Shown here piece by piece: positions 1,728-56,514 of a DNA stretch of 62,154 nucleotides. Where the stretch lies: contig PS015020.1 in NCBI GenBank assembly GCA_048213135.1, positions 80,173 through 142,326 of the forward strand, in the 5' to 3' direction. The notes beneath the pieces are model-generated. The model searched no databases, was not told where the DNA came from, and saw nothing but the letters and a program-made list of their open reading frames with translations. The position numbers and the translations under genes are program-made. The DNA is from Reclinomonas americana ATCC 50394. Its lineage: Eukaryota. Positions within the stretch are counted from its first letter, which is position 1. Each line of letters starts with the position of its first letter.

Positions 1728-4700
1728 CTAGGTAAGGTCGGGCCGCAGTGACCAGCGACCGTTCTGCAGCTTGGCCACACGCTGCAGCATGGCCTTGAAG
1801 AGGGCCTTGTCCTTGCCCATGCTGCCGACACGAGGCTCAAAGTGGTCGATCAGGTCCTGCGTCGGCACGCCCACGGTGCCATGGTCGACCATGAATTGGC
1901 GGATCTCGCCGGCCAGCGTGCTCGGATCCACACTCCACTGCATCCGGGCTGCCGACGTCGCTTGCATGGACTCGACACTGGCAATGGTGGTCTGAGAGAA
2001 TGAGAGAGGGAGACGGAAGAGTCAGCCAGCCATTCGGAAAACATCAATTCTCGGTGACCTTCCGTACCTTTTCCGCCTGCTGCTGATAACCAGCCAACAC
2101 ATCTGCGCTGGTGAGCGATGTCGAACGAGTGCTGCTCAAGCCTCCAGCACCGGCAAACAGTTGGTCGTCCTGGTCGGGAGGGGGGAGAATAACAGGAGTA
2201 AGAATGAAGGAGCAGCGTGGAGAAACGCAAGAACGCCATTGTCGCAACTTGCGACATTGGTGACGGCGTCGACAGGGACGGCGACGGCGAGCTGCTGGTG
2301 CGTGAGATGACCGACGAGTGGACCGGTGGGGCCGAGAACACGGGTGGAGCCACGTGCTTCTGTCCGAATCGCGGACGGTTCGGCGCGCCTGCGGCTCCCG
2401 AGCGACCGGTCCACGTCGGCACTCCCATACCAGCAGAACGCACCGTCTGCCGACTCTGTCGAAGTACAGCAGCCGCCTTTTGTGCGGCCGCTTTCGCTGC
2501 GCGCATCGCGCTCAAAATGTGACTGCCAACGACGACGATGAACAGTGAACACTCACCCTCCATCTCCACAATGATGCGTTCCGGCTGAGCGGCCGTCAAC
2601 ACCTTGTCGTGTGAGACGACAGAGTGCACACTGTTGCCCTCGAGAATGCGCTTGAGAATGTTGGTTTCGTTGGCCGCCGCCGATTTCCTGTGCGCACACA
2701 GTCAGCGTCAATAACTTACCTCAGTCCTCGACCAATCACCACTCAACTTGGAGGAAGCCTTCTTCTCCAGCGGTGCACCTCCATCCACGCTTGCAGCTGC
2801 CTTTTCTCCTCCTTCGCCCTCCTCACCTTCATCACTGCACGGCAACCCCGAAAAGATCAACAAACACTGACGACCGGTGCGAGGTGATGTGAGACGCAGG
2901 CCACGCACCCGACGTACTCCTCCACAGCACACACCCCGGCCACTTGCGCCACACCATCCGTATCGTTGGCTGGCCGACGGAATACGGCCGCACTCGCCTC
3001 CATGGCGGCCATTGCACGACTCACGGCCTCGGCTCGTCTCTTCTGCTCCACTTCCCGATGGTAGCCAGGTCGACGTGGAGCACGCGGTCCACGCGGCTTG
3101 GCGGCTTCTGCACTGGCCGCTGCGTCGCCACTGCCGTCGTCCTTTTTCTTGGTAGACGGAACCCATGACGTTGCGACATAATCTTCCGCCGCCTCCACTG
3201 CACCTCCTCCACCAGGCGGTTCAATCTCCTGCACATCCGGCACCTCCATGTCTGCTGCTGCTTCCTCTTCCTCCTCCTCTACCGCCGCCGCCGCCGCCGC
3301 CGCAGCCGCATGCCGCTCGGACATGCGCACCGAGCGTAGACTTGAGCGAATGGCTGTGGAGGGAGGGGTGATAAGAGATCAGAAGCCTGCACAGCACTGA
3401 CTGCCGATCGCACCTTCCTCGACTTGATCGTCCTCTCCCGACGAGTCGTCGGAATCGAGCTTGACACCGGCTTCCTCCAGCAGCTTGCTTGTCTCCGTCT
3501 TGTCGTCGTACTGCGTGCCGAGGGTGAACAGATCACGAATGTCGTGCGACTCAAAGATGCGCTTCTGTCGCGGGTCGTCCAGGATTTTCTCCGTCAAGAA
3601 GTGCTTGAAGATCTGTCGATGGTACATCTTCTCCTCGATGGTGCCGGCGGTGACCAGTCGGTAGATGGTCACATCGCGTCGCTGACCCAGTCGCCAGGCG
3701 CGCTCACGTGCCTGCATGTCCACCGATGGATTCTGCCGACGAGAACACAAGAGGGGTCAGCGACACGCGTGTGAGCCAAACGTCGACGCGCAGAAGCATA
3801 CCCAGTCGGGATCGTAGAGAATGACGCGATTGGCGCCGGTAAGATTGATGCCAAGACCACCCACACGGGTGGTGAGCAGAAACACCTGGATAGAGTCGTC
3901 GTTGTTGAACTCGTCGACCAGAGGAATGCGCTGGCCAATGGGCGTGTCACCATCCATTCGCCGGAACGAGTAGCCGGCGCGCGCCACCATCAATTGCAGA
4001 ATGTCGAGCATCTGCTTGGTCTGCGAGAACAGCAGGATGCGATGCTTCTCTTCGGTCCACAGACGCAGCAGTTCGCGCACGACCACCATTTTCCCGGAGC
4101 GCTCAGGCTTGCCGTACTTGTGCGGCTGCGAGCACTCAAAAGAGTGAGTGACCTGTGCAGAGAGAATCAAGCATATGCGGAAGCAAACCAGCGCCATGCG
4201 ACTCTCGAGGTACAGCAGGTCGGGATGGTTGCAGATCTTGCGCAGCACGGTGAGAGCGTGGAAAATCTTGTATCTGCCCTCCAGCACGTCCTCGACTTCC
4301 TTTGATTGCAGATACTCGCGATAGATGCCGGCCTGATGGTCGGTGAGCTTGCAGAAGAGCACCTGTCGGTGCGATGAGAGTGAGACATGCGTGTGATGAG
4401 CAATGACTGCTCGCTGCACTGCACAAACCTGCTCGTTCTTCTGCGGTAATTGCGACAAGACGTCCTTTTTCACACGTCGCAGCAGGTACGGATTGATCAG
4501 ATCGCGCAACACCAGCGCACACTTGTAGGCCACTTGCACTTGCTTGAAGGTGGCGTTGGAGAAGCCGCCGAGTGAAATCGGAATGGCAAATTNNNNNNNN
4601 NNNNNNNNNNNNNNNNNNNNNNNNNNNNNNNNNNNNNNNNNNNNNNNNNNNNNNNNNNNNNNNNNNNNNNNNNNNNNNNNNNNNNNNNNNNNNNNNNNNN

Positions 4701-8317: not shown

Positions 8318-9352
8318 CTACCTGCCAAACCTCTGATCGCACTTGGCGTACGCCACCAATGCCTCCTGCAAGTGGATCGGCCCGAACGTCGCCAGATCGC
8401 GGGAGAACCTGTCGCGCAGGCGCATATGAGACTCACCCTCTGCACAGAACATGTACAGGTGGGACCCACACGCAACGCGATCTCCGCCAGTCGGAGATGT
8501 AGTGGCGGAAAGCCGAGCACCGAAGGCACACCATCGGTGAGCGCCACGAGCAGATCGACATCCTCGAAGCCCAAGTTGAGTTGCCGCATGAGGTCCACAC
8601 TCTGCAGAGCCGGTGCTCGTCGGCCCTCCGCCTGCAACAGCGAAGAACACAGTCAGTCACATGCCGACGTTCTCTGTCCGTGTCGACGGTCACCTCTGCG
8701 GCCATTCCCTGCGCCACCATCTCCACCGCTCGCTGCTTCGAGTGGCGACAGTTGATGCACACCACCGACACCGATGCCAGTCCCGTGGCTGCGGCCACCA
8801 AGGCCGTGATCCTCTGCGACGCGGTCTCCAGCTGCTCCACACTCGTGTTCTCCTCGTGCGCGTACAAGACAACAATCTTCACGCCCGCGTACGCTGCCCA
8901 CGAGCACACATCCACCAGACGCTGTGTGAGAGGAGCTGTGCTCGCGGCGGTAGGCTGGCACAGAGGCTGCAGAGGGGCGATGGAGGGCAGCACAAAGGCG
9001 AGCGTGGCGGGCACCTTGTCCAGCGAGGCGCGCAGTGTGCGGAAGCGCACGATGCTCGGGTCTTCAGAGGAGCCGGGGATGGGCGCGAAACGGTTGCGAT
9101 GCAGTGCCTGTGACACGTGTGTGTTTGTGAGGCAAAGAAGGGAAGAGAAAAGAGTGTGCAAGAGAGAGGGAGAGAGAGTGCATGCCTCGCTGATGCGTCC
9201 CCACAGTCGCCAGCATTGATGACAGAGCCAGTAGACGACAAAGCCAAGCACCCATAACAGGGCAAAGGGCGACAGCCTCTGCCACCACTTGCTCAGCTGC
9301 TGTCTCATGTGATTGTCGTAGGACACTTTTAAGTCGCAACGCTTTCACTCAT
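8318..9352 (-). CDS. NUS1: NUS1/NgBR cis-prenyltransferase subunit (start codon uncertain: 9308 or 9352)
   Basis: N-terminal TM segment, LDKVPATLAFVL, WAAYAGVKIVVLY, DVDLLV..GFPPLHLRLAEI, and C-terminal YAKCDQRFGR* carrying the RxG motif. Confidence 0.85.
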
Positions 9353-11827: not shown

Positions 11828-14800
11828 ATGGACGTGGGCGACTATGTGATTCTGGGCATTGAGTTGCTCATTCTCGAGGTGCTCATTGTCTCTGTGTTTC
11901 GCTATTACACCAAGCGGAGACGCGTGGGGTGAGTGTTGACACACACAAACACACACACACACAAACACACACACAGAGGGAGGAAGAGTGTGAGAGAGTG
12001 CTGAATCGCTGCTCATTGCAGTTGGGCGGAGCGATTGACGGTGTTGTCGACGTATTCGCTGTGTCTGTCGTGCCTCATTCTGTTGCCGACGGATGTGGCC
12101 AAGGTGAGTCAGTCGATCAAGCGTACGCACGCACTGATGCAGTTCAATCCACAATGAGGATCTTGTGCGAATTCGTTTTCGTCTTTGCTCTTTGTGTGCT
12201 TGTTCTTCTCTGCCGCTCGGAGTTCTCATGTTTCTTCGTTTCCTTCTGCTCTCCATTCCTCCCTTCCTCCACCTCCTGCTGCGCTTGTTGCTGTCGCGCT
12301 TCCTCTCGTCCTTGTCACTGCCTTGCTCCTTGTCCTCATCCTTTTCCTCCTCTTCTTCTGTTCTTCTACTTCTGTTCTTCTTCTTCTTCTTTCTTCTGTT
12401 CTTCTTCTTCTTCTTCTGTTCTTCTACTTCTGTTCTTCTTCTTCTTTTCTTCTTGCTATCGCTCTCTCGTCCTCGTTATTACCTTGCTCCTTGTCCTCCT
12501 CCTCCTCCTTCTCCTCTTCCTGGCCCACTCGCTCTCCTCGTCTTCCTTCTGTGCCTTGTGTTGTTGCTTTCTCTCTCGTCCCCGTTATCACCTTGCTGCT
12601 TGGCCTCCTCATCCATCTCTTTCTCTTCCTTGCTTTCCCGTCATTTCCTTGTTCCTCTCCTCCTCTTCCTCATCTTCCCTTCCCCACCCTCTCCTCCCCC
12701 CACAGTGCGTTCAAAACCCCGACACATGCCCGCGAGTGGACACTACGACGCACAAGGTCGTGCAGGCCACCGACTGGACAGTGATGTGGAAGGTGTACTT
12801 GTGGACCATTCTCAGTGTAGCATGGTTTGTCTGCTGCTTCTTGGAGAGTTCCCTCGCTCTGTGCCTGTCGCTCACTTGTGGGTGTGTGATCAGGATCTAC
12901 GTGCCGGTCTTCCGTGCGTATGTGGCCGAGGGAGCGTTCACTATGATGGCGCGCATCTGGGCGTCTGTCAAGGAGAATGTTGCGCTCCTGCTGCACTCGT
13001 GATCGTCCATCATCGTCTTCATTCTGCTCACGCCCTACTCTCTCCCCGTGGCGCAGCTGCTCATTTATTTCACCATTGGTGGCGGCTGCGCCGTCTTTGT
13101 CATTTACAAGGCGATCACCGATCACTTGAGCTTCCAGGCCATCTATGCCATCTGCATTGCGATGAGCAACTCGTTTGGTCTGCTGGTGGTCATGCTGTTG
13201 ATGGGCTACGGTCTGGTGGAGTGCCCGCGCTTCTTCTGGAACGCCGGCAGTCGGTCCACGGAGGCCCGTGTGGTGGTGCGTCGTTGTCGTCGCTCTTTTA
13301 CGTGTGTCAGCAGAGGAATTCATCTGGGTGGCGGTGGGTAGGCATTCCGTGCTCCTGATGTCGTGGAGTCACTCGAGAAGGCGCAGCACGAGTTGCAGGC
13401 TTCTCTGGGTCTGTTGCAGGAGCTGGATCGGAAGATCACCGCCAGCGATGCTGAGCTGCGCAAGTACCTGAAGATCATTATTGAGACGGTGAGCAAGGGG
13501 AAAAGGGAGAGAGGAGGGGCGATGACAAGTTGATCACACTCTGTGTCCTCCGCACTGCATTGTGCTATCACCGTCATTTCTAACATTGTCGCTTTCCCAC
13601 TCCGTGCCCTCCTCACACTGCGTGTTGCCGTCACCATTCCACGTACTCCTGACGTCGCACAGTGCACTCATCTTCCTTCCATTATGTGTTTCTTCCCACT
13701 CTGCGCTCTTCGCTTGCCATGCAGTGCATAGCATGGTCACCTCACGCGTTCGTCACCCACTCTGCCTCGCTGCATTGCTTTTCGCTCTCTGAAGCTCCTT
13801 GTTGCCTTGTTCTATTCGTGCTCGTCTCCCACTCTTAGCTTTCGGCAAACATTCCCGACGATGCATCATGTTATCGCCATCCTTGCTCCTCGCCCACTCC
13901 TTGGTCAACACCTTATCCTCTCTCTCTCTCTCTCTCTCTCATAAATCAAACTTCCCTTGTTCCCTCCCTTGAAGATTGGCACCGCTCTTCTACCCTCCCC
14001 GCTGTCTCCTTTTCTCCTCTCCGTCTCCCTCCCCTTTCTCCTCTCTTCCCTTTCTTCTCTCCCTTCCCCTCATTATTCTCATCTCCCTTCCCTTGCCCGT
14101 CCTCGCAGGCCGGCGAATACTACAGCGTTGACGGCACATACCTCAGCGACAAGGTCGGCGAAATCAAGCTGCAGGACATTGAGTACGACATGCAGCTGGC
14201 ACGCAAGCAGCTCGGTCACTTGCACGAAGAGATCATTCGCCAGGTGCAGGTCTACGGCAAGACTCGCAAGTTGCGCACCACTCACCTCGCCCCCTCTCAT
14301 CATTATTTGCATTTCGCTGACGATGTTCGCGCAAAGTCGCTGGCTGTACCTGCAGGATCGGTACGCCTATCTGGACGAGCTGCGATCGTCGGCGGGCAGT
14401 GGTGCCGTGTTGCGTCTTTCCGCACTCTTGTCACACTCGCAATCTACTTGCCTGTGTCACTGAACCCTTTGTTTGTCGGTGCAGTGAAATGCGCATGAAG
14501 TACCAGGCAGAGAACAACAAGCTCAAGCGGTTCTGGCGAAAGACCAGTTGCGTGACGCCGCCGCTGTTGCCCTTGCTTGCCTTTGTCTCGTGTGTGCTGA
14601 CCCGAGAACAGAGTACTTTTGGGCCGTGTGGGGCGTGCCGATCACCATGCGCACGCTCAGCATCATCTTTGCTATTCTGTCGTTGCTGGTGCTGTGGTCG
14701 GAGACCACCATGTTCCTGGCCAGCTACAACTACCACTTTTCCGTGTTCTCGGTGGCCATTGAGCAGGCTCCCAAGTCGTTCTTCATCGTGCAGGTGCGGG

Positions 14801-16093
14801 GTGAAATCATCGTGCTAAGTCCCCCTTCATTGGTGGTGTGCCTGACTGCTGGCCAGATGTACGTCATGGTGCCGCTGGTGTACATGAACTTTGTGTGCTA
14901 CTTTTCGCTGTTCCGCGCCAAGTTCTTCTCGTTCTACGAGTTCCTGCCGTACTACTCGGACCAGCAGACCATGCTTTTCAACACCCTGTTGCGTCGCCGC
15001 CACTCCGACACCTGCAGACAATGTGCCCCTGCATTGCTGACTCCTTGCAATGCGCAGCTTTATTTCACGTTTCACGCTGCCAATCTGCTACAACTCGCTC
15101 ATGTTTATCCGCGAGGACAAGCTGCTCAATCACGGCACCGCGGAGGAAGGCACCGAGTTGGTGTCTGGCTTCTCATCGGTTTGTTTCACCACCGCTGCCT
15201 TTGTTTCTCGTCGTCTCTCATGCTTGTTTCATTGTCGTAAATAGGTGCTCGGCACCATGGACGTGGTGCCCCTGGTCGGCGACTACTACTTTGTGTACTT
15301 CCCCGCCGTGCTGCTCCTGCTGGTCGTCTGCAACACCTTCTCCATCTTCTCGCGCTTGCTGGCCTGCTGCGGCCTCGGCAAGAACATGTCGTTCATGAAG
15401 GAGAGCGACAGCCTGGTGGAGGAGGGCGAGCGGCTCATTCGCAACGCGCTGGCCATGCGCCGCGGTGGCGAGGATGTTGCGTGCCGCCGAATGTCGTCTG
15501 TATTGTGTGTTTTTTTGTGCGGAGTTTGTTGAACTCAACAGTTGCGGGTGCAGCGCGATCCCATGTTGATGACATCGTCGTCGTCGAGTATCGAAATGCG
15601 CGACATGGAGGGCGGTGGCGACCAGAGTTCGACCGCGCGCAGCAAGTGGCGCTCCAAGTACGAAGAGGAACGCAAGTCAAGAGACCCCTACAAGGACGCC
15701 AGCGGCGCCAACGCTCGCGACTCGACGCGCTTCAAATCGGTGGACGAGTGGCTGACCAACAACAACAATGTTGGAAGCGCTCGCCCTGCCAACAGCTCGA
15801 CGACAACAACGACCACCACTGCCAACAGCAGCAGCTCGGCATCACGTGCTCCTCCACCGTCATCCTCCTCCTCGCTGTCGTCGTCACGAGGCGCAGCCAC
15901 TGCCACCGCTGCATCGACGCCACCAAGCAGCATGTCCACTGTAGCACGTGGCAGTGGTGGTGCCAGTGGTGGAGCGGCCAGTGGTGGAGCGGCCAGTGGT
16001 GCAGGGCGTGGCGCACCAGCTGCCGGCGGAAGCAGTGGCAATAGTCGCGTCAGCAATCTGAAGGCGCTGTACGGACTCAGCGACGACGACTGA
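11828..16093 (+). CDS. LMBR1-domain multi-pass membrane protein (LMBRD2-like)
   Basis: Spliced translation gives LILLPTDVAK, WKVYLW, SVKEN, MSNSFGLLVVMLLMGYGLVECPR, SLLVLWSE, RFTLPICYN, MDVVPLVG..YFPAVLL, VEEGERLI, and a low-complexity C-tail. Confidence 0.88.
12104..12705 (+). repeat. Long pyrimidine-rich, (TTC/CCT)n low-complexity intron of the LMBRD2-like gene
   Basis: GTGAGT...CACAG boundaries; internal TTCTTCTACTTCTGTTC and (TTC)n runs. Confidence 0.8.
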
Positions 16094-18794: not shown

Positions 18795-19588
18795 TGCCTC
18801 AACACGGCCCATCTACTAACTTATTGGTGCAGATCCCGGATCGACTTGCGTGAGTTCCACAACGCGGAGGAGCTGGCGTCGGTGCTCGGCCTTGACGGTC
18901 TCAAGGAGGAGCTCATGTCGCGCGGCCTCAAGTGCGGTGGCACGCTGATGCAACGCGCCGAGCGTCTCCTCTCCATTCGCGGCCTCAGCGACGACCAGAT
19001 CCCCGCCTCGCTCAAAGCACCGGTGCCGGGTGGCGCCAGCAGCGGTGGCGGCAGTGGTGGCGAAGCCGAAGAGGTGACGCGCATGTCGGCACTGATGGAG
19101 GCACGCGTCGGCGTGTACTGCGACTTGCTGCACGACAGGATTGAGAACACCAAGATGCACACGGAGCGCAAGCAGGTGCGCACGTTTGCGGAAATGGAGG
19201 CCGAGCAGGAGGAAGAGGAGATGGAGGATCAGACGCAGCAGCCGGAGGAGGAGGAAGAGGAGGACGATGGAGTGATTTATAACCCGAAGAATTTGCCACT
19301 CGACGCCACAGGTGAGCCGCACGAGAGATCTTGCCATGTTGCTCCTCTTTTTCTCACCCTGCCTCCCACCGCAGGCCGACCAATCCCGTACTGGCTTTAC
19401 AAGCTGCACGGCCTCAATCTGGAGTACAAGTGCGAGATTTGCGGCAACCAGAGCTACTGGGGACCGAGGAATTTCGAGCGCCACTTCCAGGAGTGGCGGC
19501 ATCAGTACGGCATGCGATGCTTGCGCATTCCGAACACGCGGCATTTCCACCACGTCACCAAGATCACTGAGGCTTTGACTTGTTGCGT
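18795..19588 (+). CDS. SF3A3: SF3A3/Prp9 middle part, on a contig inverted relative to the rest of the gene
   Basis: GLDGLKEELMSRGLKCGGTLMQRAERL (SAP-like), IYNPKNLPL, PIPYWLYKLHGLNLEYKCEICGNQSYWGPRNFERHFQEWRHQYGMRCL (zinc finger); gaps on both sides. Confidence 0.92.
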
Positions 19589-19608
19589 NNNNNNNNNNNN
19601 NNNNNNNN

Positions 19609-20676
19609 CTTCTTCCACCGCAACTTTCTCTCCGGGTCCTCCGCATGCACCTGCCACCCAATCACCTGCTTGGCCGCCCACTTGTCCAAAAAGTCGTCCT
19701 CTGCACGCCTAAGCATCGCCGTGGGATCCTCCAGCGGCTGTGACCGCTGATGGAAATCCTGCAGGTACTCCAACAGGCCCGACAGGTACTGCAGGTACTC
19801 GCGACCGCCGCGGTATCTCCGCATCGCCATCAGCGGCGGCGACGGCGCAAAGTTGCGGAACTCGTCGAGGTACGTCACATAATCGATGCCCGTGTGGTGC
19901 GACAACCCGCGCAGGTTCGTGTACATCTCAAACGCCAAGTGCAAATCGACATTGCGTCCGTACCGCTCCTCGCCCGAGAACTCCACAATCGCCTCACTGG
20001 TGCCAAACTCACCCCCGGCGCCATACAAGTGCGCAATGTCGGCATCCGGGTCCGACACTCGCTCGTCGGGGTTGGGTGCGTGGAAGAGTCGCACGTCGGC
20101 CACACGCGAGGTGAAGGCCGTCCACAGACGCTGTGCATTCTCCTGCGACAAGCCCGCAATCTCCTCTTGCAGTGCCGGGTCTTGCCGCCCATGCAAGTGG
20201 ATCAGAGAGATGGCCTTGGCCCGGGCCATGTCAATCAGCTTGCGAATGCGTTGGTTCTGATAGACGCGCTCACGATGCTGCCAACACAAAAGCGCGAAAT
20301 TGATCAGTGATGATGATGCTGATGATGACGCAATGCACTCCTGGTGTGAGCATACGGGTGAGTGTGTGTGTGCGCGCGTGTGTGCGTGTGTGTGCGTGAA
20401 GAGAGAGAGAGCGCGTGCGCGTTTGCAAAGAGGACATTTCGTGTTGTCTTCTCTTGACGCGCACACTCTCTGCGCTCTCTCGCTCGCTCTCTCGTTCCAC
20501 CGCATGCAACAAGAGACACTCACATTACACACGCACACACACGCAGAGAGAGAGAGAGAGTGGAGAGAGAGACTCACCGTCTTGGCCTTCTCTGTCAACT
20601 CATGCACAATGCGCGCCTGATACCGCTCCACGTCCTCATGCAGCGTTCTCACTTGCTCCAAGTACGTAGTCGTCAT
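19609..20676 (-). CDS. SF3A3: SF3A3/Prp9 (U2 snRNP SF3a60), N-terminal part
   Basis: MTTTYLEQVRTLHEDVER, FSGEERYGRNVDLH, DYVTYLDEF, YLQDFHQRSQPL. Confidence 0.92.
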
Positions 20677-25400: not shown

Positions 25401-25746
25401 NNNNNNNNNNNNNNNNNNNNNNNNNNNNNNNNNNNNNNNNNNNNNNNNNNNNNNNCGAGGGTCACACTGACCGCGCCAACTCGTCGTCGCCGAGAGTGTT
25501 GCGACCGGAACGCACACCGCCTTTGGCCAGCCATCGCGCCAAGTCCTGCATCACAGGCGCCTCCAGTGCCCACTCCAGTGCCTCGGCTTCTGCACGGATC
25601 GCCGCAGCATTCGTCTCACCACTGGCCGGCCGGTAACCGAGACGGCACAGGGCCTCGACCTGTGTGGGAGTGAGATGAAGAAAGGGGCGAGTGGGAAAGA
25701 GAGAGAGAGGAGGAAGCGCAACAAAGTCGACTGCGCTCTGTGACAT
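22497..25746 (-). CDS. HAUS3: HAUS augmin complex subunit 3
   Basis: N-terminus DF|VEALCRLGY...LEWALE..LARWLA..NTLGDDELAR; EMTRLQS; GDYRYKIARQQYQLRKQ; QSGRHLFL; C-terminal RNLFVYFH; coiled-coil body. Confidence 0.85.
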
Positions 25747-26289: not shown

Positions 26290-34834
<8,545 letters not shown>

Positions 34835-37900: not shown

Positions 37901-39862
37901 AATAAATGAATGAGAAGGAAAACTCTGCATCAGGAGCTGACCTTGTGTGCGTTCGTTGTCGTCGGCTCGCTGGTGCACCAGTCGCACGTCCGCTCGGGGA
38001 GGCAGACGGAACGCGTCAAACTTGAACATGGCCACTCGGCCACCACATCCAATCAACGGAATGCGCTGCAGTGGCGGAACATGCTCCGGTAGTACTGCGA
38101 GGTGATGGAGGCACGATTATTTGAAGAAAGTGTGGGAATCACGCAGTCGCAGTGCGACCGAACCAACCTTGCAGCGCATACACCTTGATGGTCTTGTCGC
38201 GCGATCCCGACGCCACGTGCACCAAATTTGCACTCCACGACACCGAAACGACGCTGGCGCTGTGGTCGGCTTGTGTGTGCAAGCACTCGCCAGTTTCGGC
38301 GCTCCACACGCGCACCGTCTCGTCCCACGAACTGGAGACCAAGTGCATTCCACTCGGATGCCACGCAAGATCGCGGCACTCGTCCGTGTGACCGACGAGT
38401 GTCATGAGTGACTCGGCACGTTCACACACACCACCGGCGTCGACAGGCACCGTCGCATCCCATATCCGGATGGTGCGGTCGAACGAGGATGTCGCCACAC
38501 GATCGCCTCGTGGAGACCACGCCACTCCAAACACCTGCATGTGCACGCCGGTCAGCTCCACAGCAGAGCGATATCGAGGGGGGGAAAAGATCAAGCTAGC
38601 GGAAACGAGACCTGATCCTTGTGGCCCATTAATACGAGCACACACTGAAACGATTGCATGTCCCACACGCGGGCAGTGAGGTCGGCCGACGATGAAATGA
38701 GGTATCTTCCGTCGGGGCTAAAGCTGACGAGGAAGGTCGGTGCTGGTGGGGGGGAAAGTGGTTGTGAGGGGCAGAGAAGAGAGGAAAGAGGGAAGACAAA
38801 TGGAATGAAACGACGCGAGGAATGTAAAGACAGGCCCGTCTGATCTCGAACAAACCTGCATGACCGGTGAGTGTGGCGAGGTGGCGTCCGCGCATGGACC
38901 ACACACGGACAGTGCGGTCGTGACTCGCCGAGGCCACCATGTCCCCAGTCGGTGACACGGCGACGCCGACCACCATTTTCTCGTGGCCTTCCCATGTGGC
39001 CACACACGGCACCTCAATCGCCCCACCAGAGACCACAGTCGACGTGTCCCACACCTTCACCGTCATGTCGTTGCTGCCGGAGACCAGATGCCGACCGTCG
39101 GGAGTCCATGCAACCTGCCGAGCGTGCAATCGGTCACGAGAAACAAATTCAAGATTGAATGTGCTTGCAAGATGCGTACCGATCGAACGTGCGCCGAGTG
39201 TCCTTCGAGGATAGCCAGTGATCGGCCCATGCCAGTGTCCCACAGTCGGACTGAGGAGCACAGAGTGAGCGACGCAGGCAAATTTGATGTTCAAAATCGG
39301 CAACCGGCGCTGTGTGCATCTGTCTGAGTGTGGCAGCAACCGCCTCGAATCCCACAAATGTGCACGCAGAGTGACTTGTGAGATCGTGCACAAAGGAAGA
39401 GAACGACAAGCCATGTGTGATTCACTCCGCGCACATATGAGAGCATTTTGAGACATGATGATGGGAAGACGATCATGCCCAAGACTCTCGTTCCTTCCCT
39501 ACGCGTCCCTCTCAGCTATCTAACAAACGCAACACATACACTCTCCGGCTTGTCACAACACACACAGACGCAGATATTCGAACACGGACCACGCACGTGC
39601 CTGCACTCGCTCATGTGCCTCACACACTCTCTCACACAGTCACACACACACACACAGAGACACACACATGACAACGCAACTTGTTCCATCAACAGAGCAC
39701 GAGGCAAGCAACGTCGGCACAGTCGGACAAAATGCGACCGACTGTCACACACACACACTCTTCAGTCACACGCAACACACACTCTCTCATATACGCACAT
39801 AGAGGCGAGCGCACCTGAATCCACTTGGTGTGGCCCGTCAGCTCACACACCTCCCGCAACAT
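34986..39862 (-). CDS. WD40-repeat plus two FN3-like domains plus coiled-coil protein
   Basis: MLREVCELTGHTKWIQ|SVAFCP..LLASCSVDGT|IRLWD and further GH..WD repeats; FN3-like VVVSELEPGVVHRFRLEAR and CDITDLLPGMHYSFEMRH; long heptad-rich C-terminal half. Confidence 0.75.
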
Positions 39863-40024: not shown

Positions 40025-45524
<5,500 letters not shown>

Positions 45525-45697: not shown

Positions 45698-47276
45698 TTA
45701 CTTTTGAGCAAAACCCTGCACCACAGCAAGCACCCAGTCAGTGAAATGTGCGCGCGTGCTGGGTGAATCAAGAAAGAGAGGACGCAACAAAGCCACCAAT
45801 GGACGGCGACGAGAACGGATTGTAGTACGAGCCACCAAACGGCGGCGCCACCTGCGACGGCTCCATCATGCTCGCACCGCTGCGCTGCCTTGTGAGTACG
45901 AGGAAAACAAAATCTGCACAGCACCGCCGACATGGACAGCTATACCTTGGCGCAATCAATGAGGACGGCATGTAGGCCGGCGAGTGCTGCTGCATATGTG
46001 GGGCACGCGCAGGAAGCATTGGCTGCGGCGACAGACCGGACATCATGAAAGACCCGAGGAACGATGATGATGGGTCACTGCCGCCACCGCCGCCGCCGCC
46101 GCCGTAGGCAGACGACGGAGCACCGCCACCCATGAACGGCGGCATATGGAAGCCCGTCGAAAACGGGCCACCGAACGACGAGTATTCGCCACCACCGCCC
46201 GCAGCCGCCGCCGCCACCGACGACGACGAAGACATTTGATGCGAGGGTGCAAACGGCGGCGAAATCACGGGCGAGCCCACCGCCTCACGCACAAAGCCCA
46301 TGCCGCCAAGAGGGCCAGCGCCCACCGGCGACACTACGACCTTGGAAACGGGATCCGACATTGGTCCTTGTCCAAACAGCTGGTGCGAAGGAGCCGGTGC
46401 GTGCAGGCGCGACACCCCGTGTGAGTTCCCAGATCCCAGCAAGCCGCCCGAGCTGGACACAAACGCGTTGGTGGTAGTGGCGGTGGTAGCGGCCGACGCT
46501 GGCACTGGCATTGGCGGCGTCATCGACTGTGGCGGCGGCGGAACCGACGGCGACAGCACGCTCGACACGGGAGGGGCGAACAAAGGCTGCGCACCAAAGA
46601 CATCAAACGAGCGCGACACACCACCGACCATGGTGTGCGGTGACGTCGTGGTGGTGGTGGTGGTGGTGGTGAACGATGTCGGCGGGCCCGAAAGCGGAAG
46701 CATCGGTGGCGCCACGGCATTCACAGGCACCGAGGGCGCAGCCACAGCAGGCGAGGGGGCCACGGTCGCAAAGTCGAATTTGCTGCAGAAACAAAGAGGA
46801 GTCAGCGCGCGGAGTGGGTGGCGAGATGAGGAATCACGGAATCACCGTTCAACTCGCGGCTGCGGTGGCGCAACGGCAGACGGCACAGGCTCGACGGGTG
46901 CTTGCGGCACCAGCATCGAAGGTGCGGTCTTGGAGGCTGAGAGAGAAAGAGAGCAACAAAGTGAGTCAACTTCCACAACCCAAAAAGATGATGACTTGGA
47001 AACAAAGTGTCGACGCAACCCCACGTGGTGACGGTACGCTCGGGGCTTCTGTCTGCCGCGTTCTTCTTCTTGCGCTGTGGCCCATTGACGGTAGCTCCCG
47101 TGGCCTCCGGTGCCGTCGCCGACAAAGACGAGGGCGATGTGGCGGTTGAGCCCTTGCCACCCTCCGCAACAACCGGTGATGCCACAGAAGCAGCAGCGGC
47201 AGCGGCCGCTTGCTTGTTCTGCTTTCGCCGAGCGCTCTTGCTCTCTGCCACCACGGGTGCGGCAGGTGGCGGCGTC

Positions 47277-47307
<31 letters not shown>

Positions 47308-49456
47308 CCTGCTGCCGTCGTTGTTCGGCTTCGCGACGCTTCCTCTCCTCCAACGCCGCCTGCTCCTCCTGCTGGCGCCGTCGACGCAGAGCCTCCTCTT
47401 CTGCGCGACGCTGGCGCTCGGCCTCCTGTCGTTTCGCCTCCTCCGCCTTGCGTCGCTGGCGTTCAGCTTCCTCACGTTTTCGCTGCTGCTCCAGCTGCAA
47501 CTTGCGCTCGGCCTCCAGAGTCTTCTGCTGCTGCTCCTCGCGCTTCTTTTGTCGCTTCTCCTTCTCCTTCTGGCTCTTCTGCTCCTTGCGCTGGCGCTTC
47601 TCCTCCTCGCGCTTCTCCTCCAACTCCATCTCGCGCAGCAGACGATGTTGATTGGCCAGCGCCACCAGATCCTTGTATGCCATGAGCACTTTCTGCAAGA
47701 GGGGTGGACGAATGTTCAGGCATACACAAAAGGGAAAAATGGGAGTTGAAGGGGAACAAACCTGGATAAAGAGACGGGCCACAAAGATCTGGAAGAAGAA
47801 CCTGGCCTCCTGTCGACGACACTGCGGTTTCTGGCACGGATCCTCCTCTCCCGCAGCAGCCGCACCTGCACTGACAGCCTCCATCACGGCCGATGTGACT
47901 GCAGGGTCGGCGTCGTGTGCCATGTCGGCCGGAACAATGACGACGTCGTCATCGTTTTCGCTGTCGTCGTCATCGTCGTCGTCCTCGTCGGACTGCGTGA
48001 ATGCATTCATCCGGGTGAGCCAGCAGCAGCAACAATACACAGATAAAGCAGTGCCGGTACGAAACGTAGTCGTCGTCCTCATCATCCTCCTCGTCATCTT
48101 CATCATCGTCCATGTCTTCGTCATCGTCGTCCTCGTCGTCGTCTTCGTCGTCCATGTACGCCGCTGTAGCACCACCCATCACATAAGTTCCTTGCCGGCC
48201 GCCGCCACACACATCCCCACTCTCTCTCTCAATTCAAGTCAAACACCCACCATCACCACGACTCAAGCCACCCTCGTGGTCGTCATCGTCAATGTCGCTG
48301 CCGTCGTACGAAGATCCGCCGTCGTCATCGTCATCCATGTGGCCGGCGTGCCCGGCAGCCGCGGAGCCGCCATAAACATCCGCAGAACAATGCGATGCGG
48401 GTGCAAATGTCGCCGGAGTGACAAAACATCCCGTCTCCAACCACTTCTGGTAGTAGTGTTGGAAGGCGTGCGAGCGAAAGGAGAGTGTGTCCTTCTCGTC
48501 AAACAAGTCCATGACGCGATCCATAATGTCCGCAAAGTGACAGCCGCCGTCGCTGGTGGGTGGTGCGCGGTGAGGGGCAAAAAAAGGAAGAACGGGAAAA
48601 GGGGAGAACAAGGGGAAGAAGAGACAGCAAGTGGAGCAAGAGAAGCAGAAATTGTGACGGGCTCTTCTATGTGCACGTCTTTCCACGCAACGAAAAGAAT
48701 TCCTCCAGCAGCGTGACATGCGCATTCTCCGTCATGAGACATTCTCCAAACGGTAACTCCGTCCGCCCCGCGGTTGCAAAGGCCGACGACTGCGATGCTG
48801 GAGGCGGCGGTGGTGGTGGTGGCGGGGGTGGAAGTTGAAGCTGCTGCTGTTGCTGCGGGTGCGGAGGTGGCCCGCTCTCCACTGCCCGTGGAGATGAACC
48901 CGCCTGCAACTGCAATCTCTGCAGCTGCTCCTCCCCCTTTTCTTGTTGCTCCGCCTGCAGCTGCTGCTGCTGCTGCTGCTTCGCCTGCTGCAGTTGGTAA
49001 TGGTAGTGGTGATGGTGGTGATGATGGTGGAGAAGATGATGATGGTGGTAATGGTGATGCATGTTCCCATACGTGGCCCGACGTGCTCTCGCCGCATACG
49101 ACTGCGCCAACGACGACGCTGCCGCCGGGTCGCTCTCCAGCGCCCGCAAGTGATCCGTACCACGATCTCTCAACTCCTTGCAGTACTCTACACACATGAG
49201 CGAGTCAGCACGCGAGACGCAATGCGCAAGGGGGGGGGGGGGGGGAGGGGAGGGGAGGGACGACGACGACGACACACTACGTACGTACGNNNNNNNNNNN
49301 NNNNNNNNNAGCCGCGGCTGCGCGCGCGGCGGCGGCGGCATCGGCGGCCGCAGCTGCTGCCGCGGAGGGGTTCATTGTGTGCGGCGCCTGCTGTTGCTGC
49401 TGCTGCTGTTGCTTGCTGCCACCACCGCGGTGGTGCTTCTTCTTGCTCTTGCCCAT
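45698..49456 (-). CDS. NST1-like stress-response coiled-coil protein
   Basis: PFGECLMTENAHVTLLEEFFSDGGCHFADIMDRV and RRQEARFFFQIFVARLFIQKVLMAYKDLVA..HRLLREMELEE resemble the fungal Nst1 blocks (FGNSL..[38 protein letters not shown]). K-rich start MGKSKKK; His, Gln and Asp tracts. Confidence 0.75.
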
Positions 49457-51089: not shown

Positions 51090-52742
51090 CTGACCGAGTA
51101 CGAGCGCGTTGCCTACGTGGACGCCGACTCGGTGGTGTACGAGCCGCTGGACGACCTGTTTGCCTGCCCGGGCACTCGTCTGTGCGCCGCCTTTATCAAC
51201 CCCTGCATCTTCAACACGGGCGTGGTGGTGCTGCGGCCCGACATGCAGACATTCGAATCGATGGTGTCGACGCTCGACAAGGTCGACTCGTACGATGGTG
51301 GCGATCAGGGTTTCCTCAACGTCTACTTCCCGCACCTGCTGTCGGCGCCCATGTATCGCGGCTGGGGCGCCATTCCGCCTCTGCCAGGCTCGCACCCGCT
51401 GGCACCGATCCCGCACACGGTGGCCGAATTGGAGGCCGCCGAAAAAGATGCTCACGAGTCGGGGGCGCTGCCTGACCCTGAGGCGATCGAAGACGATGGA
51501 CCCGGCGGCAAGGGCGCTGGCGAGAAGCACGAGTTCTACCGGTTGGCCAACTATTTCCACGTCGATCCGCTCTTTTACTACACCAATCTCGGCTTTGCTA
51601 CCGCGTGCGAGCGCCCGCGTCTGGTCGAGTACCTCGGCCTGCCATTCTTGAAGCCGTGGTTCTGGTACACCTACGCATTCATGGATTTGTCGGTGAGTGG
51701 GTGGGAGAGAGAGGGGGAAAGAGAGAGAGAGGTCGCTCACATAGATCGTGTCTCAATCCACTCCTCTACAAAGTGGCCGTGGTTCGAGGTCCGCTCACAG
51801 CTGCCCACCGACCTGGCGTACTTGCAAGGCCACCCGATGTACGTGCTGGTGCCGATGGCCGTCCTGCTCAGCGTGCTCGTACTCGGCATGTGTATGCTCA
51901 GCAACAGCCACCGGCGATTCCAGGTGCTGCGATTCGTGTGCAACGACAAGGTGCACATTGGTCGGGCGCTGCTTCCCCCCGTTGCGCCGCTCTGAACATA
52001 CAGTCTCGATTTTTTTCAGGGCCGTGTGTATCGGCTACTGTCATGCTCGTTGGCGTGGATGTCGGAGGGCAGCTATCAAATCATCAGCATGCTGTACTGG
52101 ATCTTTGCACTGGCCATGGCCACCTATGTGCCCCTCAAATGGATCATTCCCATCAAGTGCGTCCTGGCAGGCACAATGCGCTGTCCATCTCCGTAGTAGA
52201 TCACTGATGCCCCCCCTCCATTGCGCAGCACAACGCCTGTGCCGGCATGGATCGCCTTTTACTGCTGGTACGTGACGCTGCTGGCGGTGTACGCGTACCC
52301 GTTCCTGTGGGCGATTGCCATTCGCGGCAAGTTGCGTCGCATGCGCGGAGAGCACTTTTCCCTTTCACTCCCTGCCGCTCACCGCACGCTGCAGGAATCA
52401 CCACGATCAAGTGTACCACTCCTCCATCCCGTCCATGGTGCGCTATGAGGATTCCGACGTACCATTACTCTCCACAGCACTGCTCGTGCTCAGCGTCGGC
52501 GTCATCTCGGCCATCTACGTCGCCTCGTGGAGTCTGCCAATCTTCCCCGTTGCGTCGCCAGCAACAGTACATGATTGCGCGCGCATTGCTCACATTTGCC
52601 GCGCGTACAGTCGTTCCTGCATCGCGTGGTGTGGATGCTGGTCTGGGGCATCGTATTCCTCGCCTACAACGTGTGGGTGGCGGTGCGGCTCAGCCGGCTG
52701 TGGTGGAGCGGATTGGTGCACACGCGGTGTGTGGCGTCGTAA
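51090..52742 (+). CDS. GT8 glycosyltransferase, PGSIP7/8-like (glycogenin-related, C-terminal TM helices); 5' exons lie in the gap
   Basis: YERVAYVDAD (DxD), LCAAFINPCIFNTGVVVLRP, SYDGGDQGFLNVYF, PFLKPWFWY; several C-terminal hydrophobic helices. Confidence 0.85.
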
Positions 52743-54098: not shown

Positions 54099-56514
54099 TT
54101 AGCCCACACTGCGATTGACGGCGGCTTCAAAGATGACATCAGTGGTGCCGTCGTCCAGCGCCTTGTGAAACTCGACACGCAAGTACTTCTCGCGCACACT
54201 GACCAGCACGAAGCCAAGGGACGCATCGCCAAAGACCGCGTATTCCGACGACTTGGCGAGCGAATCGTGCAGGCCAAACGATCCGGTGCCGCTGTTGAAC
54301 GAGGAGAGAGTGAATTGCTGAAATGTGAAGGAGAGGAAAGGAGGCGGAGCAGCAGCAGCAGCAGCAGCAGCACCTAATCACATGCGCAGCGCCGTTGCCG
54401 TCGAGCAGGTACTGCAGAGGAAAGTGCATGAGGACGCGTGGGGATGGCGAGAGAAGTGAAACGGAAATGGCCAACCTGCAGCGTGTGGTCGTGGCCGGAG
54501 AGGTACAACTGCACGTGATTGTCGCGCAAGATTGGCAGCAGCTGCTGGCGCATCTCCGTTGCACCCTCCACATCCTGCGCACGCAGTGTGAGTGCTTCTG
54601 CCGAGTGCAAGCAGGAGCGTCGAACGACGCACCATGTCACTCGAGAACGCCGGATGGTGACCTGTGCACATACTCGTCAGCGTGGCATTGAAGAAGCACG
54701 AGCAAGGCGATCGACGCCGCGCACCAACAACAATGTTCCAGGTGCCGCGTCGATCGGCATTCTCCGTTGTCTCGCGCACAAACTCGAGCATTTGCGTCAC
54801 GTCGATCTCTGTCAGCGCGGTCTTGTTGCCATACGTGTAGGTGAGGTACGTCGGCACGAGGTGAGTCGTGCTGAGCACGGTGAACGTCATGGCGAAGGCT
54901 GCGAGGAGGGAGAAGGGGTGGAGTGAGGAGAAGTGAAGGGGAAGAGAAGGGAAGAGTGAAGGGGAAGATGGAAGGGGGAAGATGGAAGGGGAAGACGAAA
55001 GGGGGAAGATGGAAGGAGGGAAGACAGAAGGGGGAAGACAAAGGGGGAAGACGGAAGGGGGAGGACGAAGGGGGAAGACGAAGGGGAAGACGGAGGGAGG
55101 AAGACTAAGGGGAGAAAGGAGAGGAGTAGTCGTCAAGGAAGAAGAGGTAGAGACACACTGCGGCTGAAAAGCAGGCACACAGGAGAACACGCAGAGGTGT
55201 TTCTTCGCAATCATCCACGCAACTGCCATCCACCCCATCAGTCGACGCCGGCACCACCTCGTCCGTCGAGTAGTAATAGTACGGCATCTCCCACCGTTCG
55301 TCAACCTCGTGATATGCAAACTGTGCGTGAGGATTGCCGAAATCATGATTGCCTGCAAGAAGAACGTGAGCGCGCGCCGTCACGAAAGACAGCTCGTCCC
55401 AACACCGCACCGAGCGATGCCGTCCATGGCACTCTTAGCGAGTCGTCCTTGTACACCTGCGCGTGCGGGAGCACGAGTGAGACGACGATACCATCTCCTA
55501 TCCACGCGCTACTCCCTCAACATCAGCAAACGAGGTCTTCCATTGTGGATCGTCGACCGAGACAACTCCAGCCTGATAGAAATTGTCGCCCACCTGCATG
55601 TCACACAGTATCAGCACCCGCTCGTCATTCTAGCTGCCCCCGCGGACAAACTCACGGAGATGATTCTTCGACAGCCCACTCGTTTGCACTCGTTGGCCAA
55701 CGCCGCCGCCACCTTGAGCTGTCCCGGCTGCGATTCATCATGAGATCAACCGACTCTTGTACTTACACATAAGGACGGCACACACACACGCACTGACCGA
55801 TCCCTGCATGCCCCAGTCGCCAATCACCGCAAAGCGATACGCGTTGCCCTCATCGTGTGGATCGTCGGCCACACTCGGATCGCCCGCTCGCTCCGCCACA
55901 TACACCGACAGGCCCGCCACGACCACCAACACGACAACAATCGAGCTCACCAGCACACTAATCACAATGCACTGTCGCCTCCTGCACAACAACATCACAG
56001 TCACAACAACAGCGATGACAAGAACGAAATTGAGATGCTGCTGATATGACTGAACTTCTTCCTCCTGCGCTGTCGCTGCACTTGAGCAGCCACATCGGGC
56101 ACCGACGCAGCACCGCCCTCGTCCAAGTCCACTGCGATCCAAAGGCGTGAGTCATTGTCGCCACTGTGAATATCATGACTGACTGGACTCACCAGTGCCA
56201 CGTGCGCTGTCTTGCGCGCGACTGAGTGGCGCCAACTCCACATCGTGCAGTGGCGAGCCGCGACGTCCACGTCCTCCTCTGCGCCCGCCTCGTCCGCCTC
56301 CTCGTCCTCCTCCTCGTCGAGATGACGATGAGTTGGGGCTTCCCGCGCGCGCAGCCCACGCCACGTCAGCGTCGTCTTGTGAGGAATCGCCGTCGCTGTC
56401 CGAGTCGGTGAACGACTCGGGCGGGAGAGCACGCATGAACTGTCGATTGTCAGTGCGCCCACTGCCACCACCACCACCACCAGAGGTGGCGTTGTTGTCG
56501 CGCGCGCCCGACAT
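54099..56514 (-). CDS. Membrane-anchored purple/tartrate-resistant acid phosphatase (metallophosphoesterase)
   Basis: Metal-binding motifs GDWG, GDNFY, GNHD, VVGHHP and SGHDH recovered by splicing; one TM helix before the catalytic domain; RG-rich N-terminus. Confidence 0.9.
54938..55110 (+). repeat. Degenerate purine-rich minisatellite (GGGGAAGA..GA units) inside a phosphatase intron
   Basis: About ten imperfect copies of ggggaaga(tgg/cga/caa)a. Confidence 0.7.

Follow-up and report, generated by a model that had tools for sequence, protein, structure and literature searches.

Distribution of GTTGCG donors over the genes of the window

The stretch of DNA that we analysed (hereafter the window) comprises 62,154 nt of Reclinomonas americana ATCC 50394 (assembly GCA_048213135.1, contig PS015020.1, positions 80,173-142,326 of the forward strand) and holds many genes with many introns. 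The original prediction named 36 introns in this window that start with GTTGCG, and all 36 coordinates indeed carry the word on the strand given. Rechecking the 36 sites likewise bore out that G occupies exon position -1 only at 29190 and 47019, and that T occupies +7 in 26 of them.

The placement of the cut was assessed at 14 junctions by scoring spliced products against homologues, which included intron-free ORFs on contigs too short for introns (P0001, 674 aa/2474 nt; P0015, 1408 aa/4361 nt), with GT/GC/AT-AG/AC alternatives allowed within 24-30 nt, including a GC donor 3 nt downstream. The cut fell exactly at |GTTGCG in eight junctions (12979, 14270, 14547, 14988, 15476, 26448, 28563 and 29876), where it outscored all alternatives, the GC donor included, with a margin of roughly one gap penalty for each homologue. 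The other six (14409, 29190, 31767, 31945, 33266 and 34363) lie in unconserved sequence, and the claim that conserved residues fix the cut at GT was thus sustained for the eight junctions and not for the six.

In the LMBR1-domain gene on the plus strand, the phase 0 GTTGCGC intron at 12979..13056 ranked best of 36 against P0001 (311 vs 300; margin 11 per homologue), the phase 2 GTTGCGC intron at 14270..14336 first of 32 (157 vs 149; margin 8), the phase 1 GTTGCGT intron at 14547..14611 first of 66 (193 vs 192 with AC acceptors permitted; margin 7 among GT/GC-AG pairs) and the phase 2 GTTGCGT intron at 14988..15057 first of 32 (295 vs 284; margin 11). The GTTGCGT donor of the intron at 15476..15553 was first of 83 (margin 5), with its acceptor at 15553 or, by the gene model described below, at 15541. 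For the GTTGCGT intron at 14409..14484, which is in the model and ranked fifth of 78, the spliced product aligned across the region with two compensating 1-residue gaps.

The USP40-like gene, also on the plus strand, contains a 294-nt GTTGCGC intron at 26448..26741 that ranked first of 35 with eight homologues (1095 vs 1013; margin 10.2). A GTTGCGT intron within the UCH domain (28563..28630) ranked first of 163 (1769 vs 1684), and the Pfam UCH match stops 1 nt short of the exon end at this donor; another at the end of the domain (29876..29951) ranked first of 78 (826 vs 776; margin 6.2). The remaining GTTGCGT introns of this gene were placed by the model: 29190..29260, with G at -1 (rank 30 of 110 by homology), 31767..31895 and 31945..32015 (both by the model only), 33266..33326, and 34363..34436, a near-tie by homology at rank 4. 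A GC donor 3 nt downstream of 33266 scored higher and was set aside as alignment noise.

The SMC5 gene on the plus strand has, in the model, a 261-nt GTTGCGT intron near its 5′ end (40216..40476; model only), a GTTGCGT intron at 43714..43780, a GTTGCGG intron at 44176..44243 and a GTTGCGC intron at 44950..45022 that precedes the C-terminal ATPase exon; the 3′ exon of this last intron aligns to SMC5 from its first residue, and the 5′ exon is not alignable. The GTTGCGT at 43236..43307 is absent from the model; the local frame allows phase 0, with the acceptor at 43307 (72 nt) or 43501. In unnamed genes on the same strand, the model includes a 39-nt GTTGCGC intron (51981..52019) and a GTTGCGT intron (52549..52610), and a 64-nt GTTGCGT intron seen by eye (52331..52394) is absent from the model and frame-compatible in phase 2.

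On the minus strand, the 3′ part of the SNF2-helicase gene carries a weak GTTGCGA site (2170..2248; 79-nt intron by eye), which is absent from the model and frame-compatible, and the same gene carries a GTTGCGT site absent from the model (8409..8476), for which an intron of 68 nt is a better fit than one of 37 nt. The HAUS3-like gene has five model introns, namely the GTTGCGT introns at 22931..22994, 23120..23190 and 23574..23636 and the GTTGCGC introns at 24038..24104, found already by the donor-agnostic model, and at 25660..25722, the upstream exon of which has just 8 nt before a gap. Unnamed minus-strand genes contribute GTTGCGT introns at 45716..45788 (73 nt by eye, 534 nt in the model), 46937..47019 (in the model; the second site with G at -1), 48553..48691 (in the model, with a weak upstream exon) and 54899..55223 (325 nt with an internal CT-rich repeat, found already by the donor-agnostic model). 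A GTTGCGT upstream of the WD40 gene (39674..39680, minus strand) lacks coding support, and its intron could not be traced. Two sites concern SF3A3: a GTTGCGT ending the C-terminal piece (19582..19588, plus strand), which the human SF3A3 alignment reaches within one codon, and a GTTGCGG after the N-terminal half (19609..19624, minus strand), where that alignment stops nine codons upstream. Since both adjoin the same 20-N gap, no acceptor is traceable for either.

Frequency and strand bias of the donor word

The donor-agnostic gene model allowed any GT as donor and scored acceptors flatly, and its codon table was built on 2299 codons with Pfam support. Of the 36 sites it found 12, and the donor hexamer with the strongest enrichment was GTTGCG (12 introns among 110 free of N vs 1.12 expected, p=1.8e-9), followed by GTGAGT (6 vs 0.98 expected). 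Four rounds of self-training raised the number of sites used as donors to 31 of 36, the five others being 43236, 52331, 2248, 8476 and 39680. GTTGCG began 21 of the 120 introns in the model (21 of 75 with the count limited to donors of a recognisable motif), which makes the proposed share of a quarter an approximate one. By this estimate GTTGCG(T/C) starts about one fifth of the introns in the window, a figure that comes from a single 62-kb window and from a gene model of our own making that has evident errors, 45 of its 120 donors having no recognisable motif.

GTTGCG occurs 78 times in the window vs 61.8±7.6 in dinucleotide shuffles, 2 of 100 of which reached 78. The heptamer GTTGCGT occurs 34 times vs 13.1±3.2, a count reached by none of 100 shuffles, and 26 of these 34 copies are claimed donors; GTTGCGT is thus enriched within the window. 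Within genes GTTGCGT showed a sense:antisense ratio of 29:2, the strongest bias among 312 GT-heptamers. For GTTGCGY the ratio was 42:8, vs 5:4 for GTTGAGT, and among the words that a displaced regular donor could give, only GTTGCGY was biased in this way, GTTGAGT, GTTGTGT and similar words being without it.

These results bear on whether the sites could be an artefact, with the true cuts at conventional donors close by or at the GTT|GC of GC-AG introns, in which case the word would reflect coding sequence or base composition. The six junctions not fixed by homology and the five sites outside the gene model leave room for this. However, the GT cut beat every alternative at eight junctions, the sense bias was 29:2, and the enrichment was present in the donor-agnostic model, so that we consider an artefact most improbable.

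A discrete class of otherwise ordinary introns

Regular donors in the window conform to G|GTNNGY, with both the -1 G and the +5 G. G at -1 was found in 36 of 54 regular donors vs 2 of 36 GTTGCG sites (Fisher p=3e-9), and the latter number is also below the 9.7 expected from codon position (P=0.0008), which upholds the predicted depletion beyond composition. The GTTGCGY class has an invariant G at +4 and C at +5; +4 of regular donors is A17 C15 T16 G6. Position +7 of the class (T26 C7 G2 A1) resembles +6 of regular donors (T34 C14 A3 G3). The introns are in other respects regular, as had been proposed for their branch points and acceptors: a CTSAY branch motif lay within the last 45 nt in 14 of 21 vs 36 of 54 regular introns (13.5% of random 40-mers), the acceptor had C at -3 (CAG) in 19 of 21 vs 48 of 54, and the median length was 68 nt vs 72 nt. 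Neither the U12-type word nor the rigid U12-type branch site was present. The prediction of a discrete donor class that lacks both -1 G and +5 G was thus upheld, and the sequence evidence makes it very probable that GTTGCGY is a genuine and abundant 5′ splice site class of otherwise ordinary short GT-AG introns.

Phases 0/1/2 were distributed 7/4/10 in GTTGCG introns vs 35/11/8 in regular ones (chi-square p=0.009). Conceivably, the class could be the worn relic of an episode of rapid intron gain driven by an introner-like element with GTTGCGY as its terminal bases, the word having been kept because it was a working donor. Besides the phases, the different exon context without -1 G and the short, uniform lengths would fit such an origin. 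Yet the phase shift may follow from the preference for A or T at -1 combined with G/C-rich third codon positions, the introns compared showed no mutual similarity outside the heptamer, and a terminal complement or target-site-duplication-like repeat was found in 1 of 21 only. As this origin is also silent on how the word is recognised, we regard it as improbable.

Predicted recognition by U1

The word had been interpreted as the regular donor GTGCGT displaced by one base. Displacement accounts for positions -1 and +7 and not for the invariant +4 G and +5 C. Moreover, as GTGAGT, GTGTGT and GTTTGT are common regular donors, displacement alone should also produce GTTGAGT, GTTGTGT and the like, the very words in which the sense bias was missing. 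Still, a displaced-register logic in some form is favoured, somewhat above an even chance.

The predicted duplex energy with the standard U1 5′ end was -1.21 kcal/mol for GTTGCG (34 sites), -6.19 for regular donors (54 sites) and -2.82 for random GT sites (599 sites), the energies being nearest-neighbour values that leave out pseudouridine, U1-C and Luc7 contacts. The class is thus predicted to pair less well than random GT sites in any register, and its +5 C would be unpaired. When 1024 variants of U1 positions 4-8 were scanned, the standard sequence or a one-base variant served regular donors best; GTTGCG sites were best served only by G5, C6, A8 variants.

Standard snRNAs might nonetheless suffice if U1 bound weakly, without being limiting, in a +1 shifted register (+1G on C9; +3U, +4G, +6G and +7U on A7, Psi6, C4 and A3), with U6, U5 and Prp8 then setting the cut at GU. 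A -1 G would then be unneeded and even avoided, because two Gs in a row would promote canonical pairing, which is unproductive here, and Y at +7 would parallel Y at +6 of regular donors. Shifted registers are proven in human, and the pairing of U1 is flexible and does not decide where cleavage takes place (PMC4856993; PMC11732430). However, a predicted pairing weaker than at random GT sites is hard to reconcile with this scheme, GUUGAGU (-5.8 kcal/mol) should beat GUUGCGU (-1.4) despite their sense biases of 5:4 vs 29:2, and an invariant seven-base word is left without reason. We judge it unlikely that standard snRNAs alone explain the class.

A bulged register, in which +3U (or +2U) bulges and U1, the U6 ACAGAGA box or both pair with GU + GCGY, would take the word for a regular GTGCGY donor plus one extra T, and the bulge +2/+3 register is validated for a few tens of human sites (PMC4856993). 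In this register a G at -1 would contribute a further G:C pair and be expected at about 67%, as in regular donors; it was found at 5.6%, below background. Given also the poor predicted energy and the disuse of GTTGAGT and GTTGTGT, bulging seems very improbable. Simple shifted or bulged pairing, one of the two options put forward originally, was therefore not supported; on these modelled energies and the -1 G depletion it appears insufficient, which implies an adapted RNA or protein partner.

The partner could be a sequence-specific protein, either a splicing factor that binds RNA or a diverged subunit of the U1-C/Luc7 type, that recognises UUGCGY and brings the spliceosome to sites where U1 by itself binds weakly. 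An invariant word not complementary to standard U1 would suit such a reader, and LUC7 proteins reportedly distinguish between classes of 5′ splice sites (PMC11842720). Against this, the inclusion of the cleaved GU in the motif points towards the core machinery, and our literature search found no precedent; we hold a protein reader to be quite improbable.

Comparison with known systems and a possible partner

The human shifted-register 5′ splice sites (Roca & Krainer 2009, via Tan et al. 2016, PMC4856993) share with GTTGCGY a U after GU, a consensus block displaced by one base, a dispensable -1 G and a cut that stays at GU with the guide pairing one base off. They are, however, rare individual sites that gain standard-U1 pairing when shifted, all validated non-canonical registers in human amounting to 1.5% of 201,541 sites (PMC4856993), whereas GTTGCGY is an invariant heptamer at about one fifth of introns whose +5 C makes pairing with a standard U1 poor in every register. 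Bulge +2/+3 sites, of which 68 are predicted in human (Roca et al. 2012, via Tan et al. 2016, PMC4856993), can also be written as a regular donor with an extra U after GU, but retain the benefit of the -1 G that is depleted here. The two major U2-type classes AG//GUNNN and NN//GURAG (Parker, Fica & Simpson 2025, PMC11732430) likewise show a split consensus, exon/intron-side compensation and one class without -1 G; unlike GTTGCGY, which lacks both -1 G and +5 G, they have one register in common, and +5 G is present in the intron-side class.

GTTGCGY also resembles the U12-type introns, whose 5′ splice site is likewise a second, long and rigid word with no exon consensus. The U12-type word is RTATCCTT, and these introns usually make up well under 1% of introns. 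Although the branch motif and spacing of GTTGCGY introns are those of regular introns, a word read by its own complementary snRNA offers a model for a dedicated partner. Human variant U1 snRNAs (vU1) have altered 5′ ends and are a precedent for U1 paralogues able to read other donor words; no large, discrete class of introns served by such a variant is known to us. Few known RNA sequences are as conserved as the 5′ ends of U1, and lineages with odd splice sites have, to our knowledge, all been found with standard snRNAs so far, both of which speak against an adapted snRNA. No snRNA gene was found by Rfam match anywhere in the 62-kb window. Two further observations run counter to our best explanation: a single altered U1 (G5, C6) predicts a preference for C at +4 of regular donors, which is absent, and the excess of T at -1 (14 of 36 sites) fits no pairing scheme.

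Because binding of GTTGCGY to standard U1 is predicted to be weak, we infer an adapted recognition partner, and a dedicated or altered U1/U6, the other option put forward originally, would fit the facts better than displacement as first stated. That this partner is an snRNA we consider possible but doubtful; the best explanation as a whole, a real class in a displaced register with an adapted partner, is held tentatively, at somewhat less than an even chance. The likeliest partner would be a U1-type snRNA with a 5′ end complementary to UUGCGY (ACGCAA-like), be it a second U1 variant or a single altered U1 serving both classes in two registers. The +1G of GTTGCGY would take the place of the exon -1G of regular donors, and UGCGY at +3 to +7 that of their UGCGY at +2 to +6, with the catalytic core later fixing the cut at GU. 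GTTGCGY would thus be read from the intron side as a fixed seven-base unit, so that specificity in this class may come from intronic contacts rather than from the -1 G or the +5 G.

Gene content of the window

The window (62,154 bases, 4,505 N in 16 gaps, G+C ∼59%) is eukaryotic DNA, densely packed with genes and rich in short introns. Gene identities were assigned from Pfam matches on open-frame fragments together with PDB sequence matches. A DH-type RhoGEF, an LMBR1-domain protein and a USP40-like peptidase are encoded on the plus strand, a SNF2 helicase, a HAUS3-like protein and a PLD-like protein on the minus strand, and there are two WD40 proteins. The SMC_N/AAA_23 gene at 40000-45520 (+) was identified as SMC5 and not as Rad50, its last large exon aligning to SMC5 928-1085 (E=5e-42). 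SF3A3 is split, with the counterpart of human SF3A3 34-230 on the minus strand (19609-20727) and that of residues 237-457 on the plus strand (18795-19588), in a small contig between two gaps. Since the two halves sit on opposite strands, this small contig is inverted in the assembly. A second, separate UCH-domain gene (UCH peptidase; 20830-22340, +) separates SF3A3 from the HAUS3-like gene. An Rfam scan of the window at the gathering threshold returned no matches. G or C fills 77% of third codon positions. Most introns measure 55-100 nt; long ones (26448-26741, 39600-39680, 40216-40476) carry (CA)n/(GT)n and (CT)n microsatellites, and the 325-nt intron 54899-55223 (-), which follows the donor at 55223, is filled by a degenerate, CT-rich tandem repeat of ∼20 nt.

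Excess and strand bias of the GTTGCGY word

The original prediction held that 36 introns start with GTTGCG, and the hexamer was indeed present at all 36 positions on the strand claimed. G at -1, the last exon base, was limited to 29190 and 47019, and T occupied +7 in 26 of the 36 sites. Across the window the hexamer was mildly over-represented (78 copies vs 61.8±7.6; 2 of 100 shuffles reached 78) and the heptamer GTTGCGT strongly so (34 vs 13.1±3.2; reached by 0 of 100 shuffles). Sense and antisense copies of heptamers were counted on a strand map made by hand, and GTTGCGT, with a ratio of 29:2 (p=2.3e-7), was the most biased among 312 GT-heptamers present in 8 copies or more. GTTGCGY was adopted as the working word because GTTGCG followed by C or T occurred 42:8 sense to antisense, vs 11:10 when followed by A or G. 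On the 25.7 kb where the strand was set by Pfam/PDB matches alone, the sense to antisense count was 20:4. GTTTGT is also sense-biased (29:7). Copies of GTTGCGT beyond the claimed sites are found at 10281(-), 39533(-), 39776(-), 49938(-), 11497(+) and 61536(+); several are sense-oriented within genes and could serve as extra donors, and three are located less than 250 nt upstream of a WD40 gene.

Donor usage was then scored with a small home-made dynamic-programming gene model, which in its first pass allowed any GT donor and any AG acceptor at equal cost and used a codon table of 2,299 Pfam-supported codons. This pass yielded 110 N-free introns, 12 of which started with GTTGCG where 1.12 were expected from the share of GTTGCG among all 7,639 GT sites (p=1.8e-9); the runner-up was GTGAGT, with 6 vs 0.98 expected. 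All 12 GTTGCG donors fell within the 36 sites claimed. Self-training for four rounds left 120 introns whose two flanking exons were both kept, and GTTGCG was the most frequent donor (21), followed by GTGCGT (10), GTGAGT (8), GTGTGT (5) and a long tail. The trained, frame-consistent model used 31 of the 36 claimed sites as donors; five were weak or untraceable, and two sites adjoin gaps. The model is crude: 45 of its 120 donors carry no recognisable motif, and some are misplaced as judged by homology, the true donors near 12825 and 15179, for example, being GTTTGT. The share of the GTTGCG class, 21/120 or 21/75 among recognisable donors, is accordingly approximate, as it comes from a home-made model and one window.

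Homology places the cut at GT

A first search for homologous proteins gave no match with the LMBR1 piece or the SMC5 coiled-coil exon. An exhaustive HMMER search with the LMBR1 piece identified P0001, a homologue of 674 aa with 62% identity over the matched stretches; its ORF fills a 2,474-nt ENA contig too closely to leave room for introns. Once spliced, the LMBR1-domain gene of the window yields a product that can be aligned with P0001 over its length. The USP40-like gene returned 16 homologues, among them a 1,408-aa ORF that lacks introns, located on a contig of 4,361 nt, and animal USP40s; the best matches were animal proteins at 40-44% identity and a transcript-like sequence at 49%. Each junction was examined by combining all GT, GC or AT donors with all AG or AC acceptors within 24 nt and scoring the resulting peptide per pair. 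Against P0001, the GTTGCG donor scored top at 12979, 14270, 14547, 14988 and 15476, while conservation around 14409 was too weak for P0001 to settle the donor. Against eight USP40 homologues, the GTTGCG donor came out on top at 26448, 28563 and 29876, with a lead of roughly one gap penalty for each homologue; the USP40-like junctions at 29190, 31767, 31945, 33266 and 34363 lie in unconserved sequence.

The usual runner-up was the GC three bases downstream (GTT/GCG, with the slash marking the cut), which would make these GC-AG introns whose exon keeps GTT and gains one extra residue. At 8 junctions this alternative scored 5-11 units lower for each homologue, which excludes GC-AG splicing wherever a test is possible. 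The sole apparent exception favouring a GC donor, at 33266, was alignment noise. When the comparison was re-run with GT/GC-AG pairs only, 13 junctions showed a margin of at least 5 per homologue, comprising 8 GTTGCG, 3 GTGAG and 2 GTTTGT donors. Homology thus fixes the predicted cut, /GTTGCG, at 8 junctions.

At 19582, which like 19624 adjoins a gap, the alignment to human SF3A3 reaches within a codon of the site. NCBIfam profiles run on 147 exact exons gave nothing informative at GTTGCG junctions; at a regular donor, the idea that exon ends coincide with continuity of the profile worked. In the PDB, the exon that precedes 44950 matched coiled-coil noise only, an ESM Atlas search with the SF3A3 exon returned no usable match, and metagenome scans for genomic DNA of relatives, made with P0001 and alignment A1, confirmed none. 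A coding score test on the upstream 150 nt was useless because the exons are short.

GTTGCG introns differ from regular introns at the donor

Regular donors (n=54) follow G/GTNNGY, with G at -1 in 36 of 54, mostly G at +3, a free +4, G at +5, and T34 C14 A3 G3 at +6. Among regular donors, GTTTGT and GTCAGT are seen as well as GTGAGT, GTGCGT and GTGTGT, mostly with G at -1 (e.g. 12825, 15179, 4362(-), 22759(-)). The GTTGCG donors display T14 A13 C7 G2 at -1, always C at +5, and T26 C7 G2 A1 at +7. G at -1 is therefore far rarer than in regular donors (2/36 vs 36/54; Fisher p=3e-9), and it is also rarer than expected from codon position (2 seen vs 9.7 expected for the 31 sites with a model phase; P=0.0008). 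The excess of T at -1 (14 of 36 sites) fits no pairing scheme.

Downstream of the donor the two classes are alike. The GTTGCG introns run from GT to AG and, for the 31 sites used by the frame-consistent model, their removal restores the frame; their lengths do not differ from those of regular introns. U2-type introns have a degenerate YTNAY branch motif located 10-40 nt before a YAG acceptor. As had been proposed, branch points look U2-type and acceptors are mostly YAG: CTSAY was found in 14 of 21 GTTGCG introns vs 36 of 54 regular ones and 13.5% of random 40-mers, it lies 11-26 nt from the acceptor as in regular introns, and C occupies acceptor position -3 in 19 of 21, with no difference from regular introns. 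Intron phases 0/1/2 were 7/4/10 for GTTGCG and 35/11/8 for regular introns (p=0.009), a shift towards phase 2 that may follow from the preference for A or T at -1, given the G/C-rich third codon positions. An introner-like family is unlikely, as there is no shared sequence beyond the heptamer and a repeat of exon end and intron end occurred in 1 of 21 introns. The complement of the donor word, CGCAAC, was present in 0 of 19 GTTGCG intron bodies.

U12-type introns are marked by an RTATCCTT donor and a TCCTTRAY branch site close to the acceptor, and to our knowledge theirs is the sole second donor word with a guide of its own. Neither motif was seen in the GTTGCG introns inspected, whose branch motif is that of regular introns, and we rejected a U12-type assignment. 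Together, our reading of these findings is that the GTTGCG class is real.

Predicted pairing with U1

Duplex energies were computed with the unmodified standard U1 5′ end (PMC4856993), without pseudouridine or snRNP proteins, a sequence that may not be that of the organism's own U1. The 54 regular donors gave a mean of -6.19 kcal/mol in the canonical register and 599 random GT sites -2.82 kcal/mol, while the 34 GTTGCG sites with full context averaged only -1.21 kcal/mol. The class does not qualify as a 5′ splice site complementary to standard U1 (-1 G, +5 G), and standard U1 alone is an unlikely reader of it.

The original prediction explained GTTGCGT as the local GTGCGT donor displaced by one base. 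Such a displacement explains both the lack of -1 G and the pyrimidine at +7, but it leaves the invariant +4 G and +5 C unexplained. GTGAGT, GTGTGT and GTTTGT are common as regular donors, yet their displaced forms are unused (e.g. GTTGAGT, 5:4 sense to antisense). A GUUGAGU model site reaches -5.8 in the shifted register, vs -1.4 for GUUGCGU. Offset +1 appeared in a minority of the 34 minimum-energy duplexes (11 within the six commonest patterns); few base pairs form, and the energy averages -1.2 kcal/mol, for a standard U1 that may not be the organism's own. Bulged pairing, also put forward, runs against the data: it would keep the canonical pairs at -1, +1 and +2 around one bulged U and make -1 G helpful, whereas -1 G is below expectation.

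U1 positions 4-8 were subsequently varied in every combination, giving 1,024 sequences to scan. The regular donors were best discriminated by the standard U1 sequence or a one-base variant thereof, which makes a standard-like U1 very probable in this organism. For the GTTGCG class, no variants but those with G5, C6 and A8, which complement the word, were suitable. One U1 bearing G5 and C6 could serve both classes moderately; it predicts a preference for C at +4 in regular donors, and none was seen.

The GTTGCG donors are probably recognised through their intronic bases, with the register displaced by one position. We tentatively place an adapted guide RNA first among the candidate readers of the class. 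Close behind comes the rather doubtful explanation that the standard snRNAs suffice, with U1 binding that is weak and non-limiting. In a fuller scheme, less probable still and put forward as an unlikely proposal, the major spliceosome would have two donor-recognition systems, standard U1 for G/GTNNGY and a second guide RNA for GUUGCGY (∼1/5 of introns). This guide would be a U1 paralogue or another snRNA region with an ACGCAA(C)-like single-stranded end, and branch-site and acceptor recognition would be common to both donor classes. If true, 5′ splice sites would be read in a third way, in addition to U1 and U11.

Relation to known donor classes and implications

It is still debated whether U1 pairing or the later contacts with U5 and U6 select the 5′ splice site. 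A literature search for the word in a splicing context found nothing on splice donors among the matches listed. Shifted and bulge +2/+3 registers are established and rare in human according to PMC4856993, where validated non-canonical registers make up 1.5% of sites and bulge +2/+3 is predicted at 68 sites. U2-type donors are divided into AG//GUNNN and NN//GURAG in PMC11732430, with one register kept and +5 G in the intron-side class. As described there, these known classes share one register, whereas GTTGCGY is probably read off-register and lacks -1 G and +5 G.

All evidence on the GTTGCG class comes from one 62-kb window. A discrete, invariant, off-register donor word for a large share of introns would be a natural experiment on 5′ splice-site choice: either the standard machinery is far more tolerant than has been assumed, or an intron class and a second guide have evolved together. 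For Reclinomonas americana ATCC 50394 itself, it means that many genes will be annotated wrongly by gene finders whose training relied on GTRAGT-like donors.
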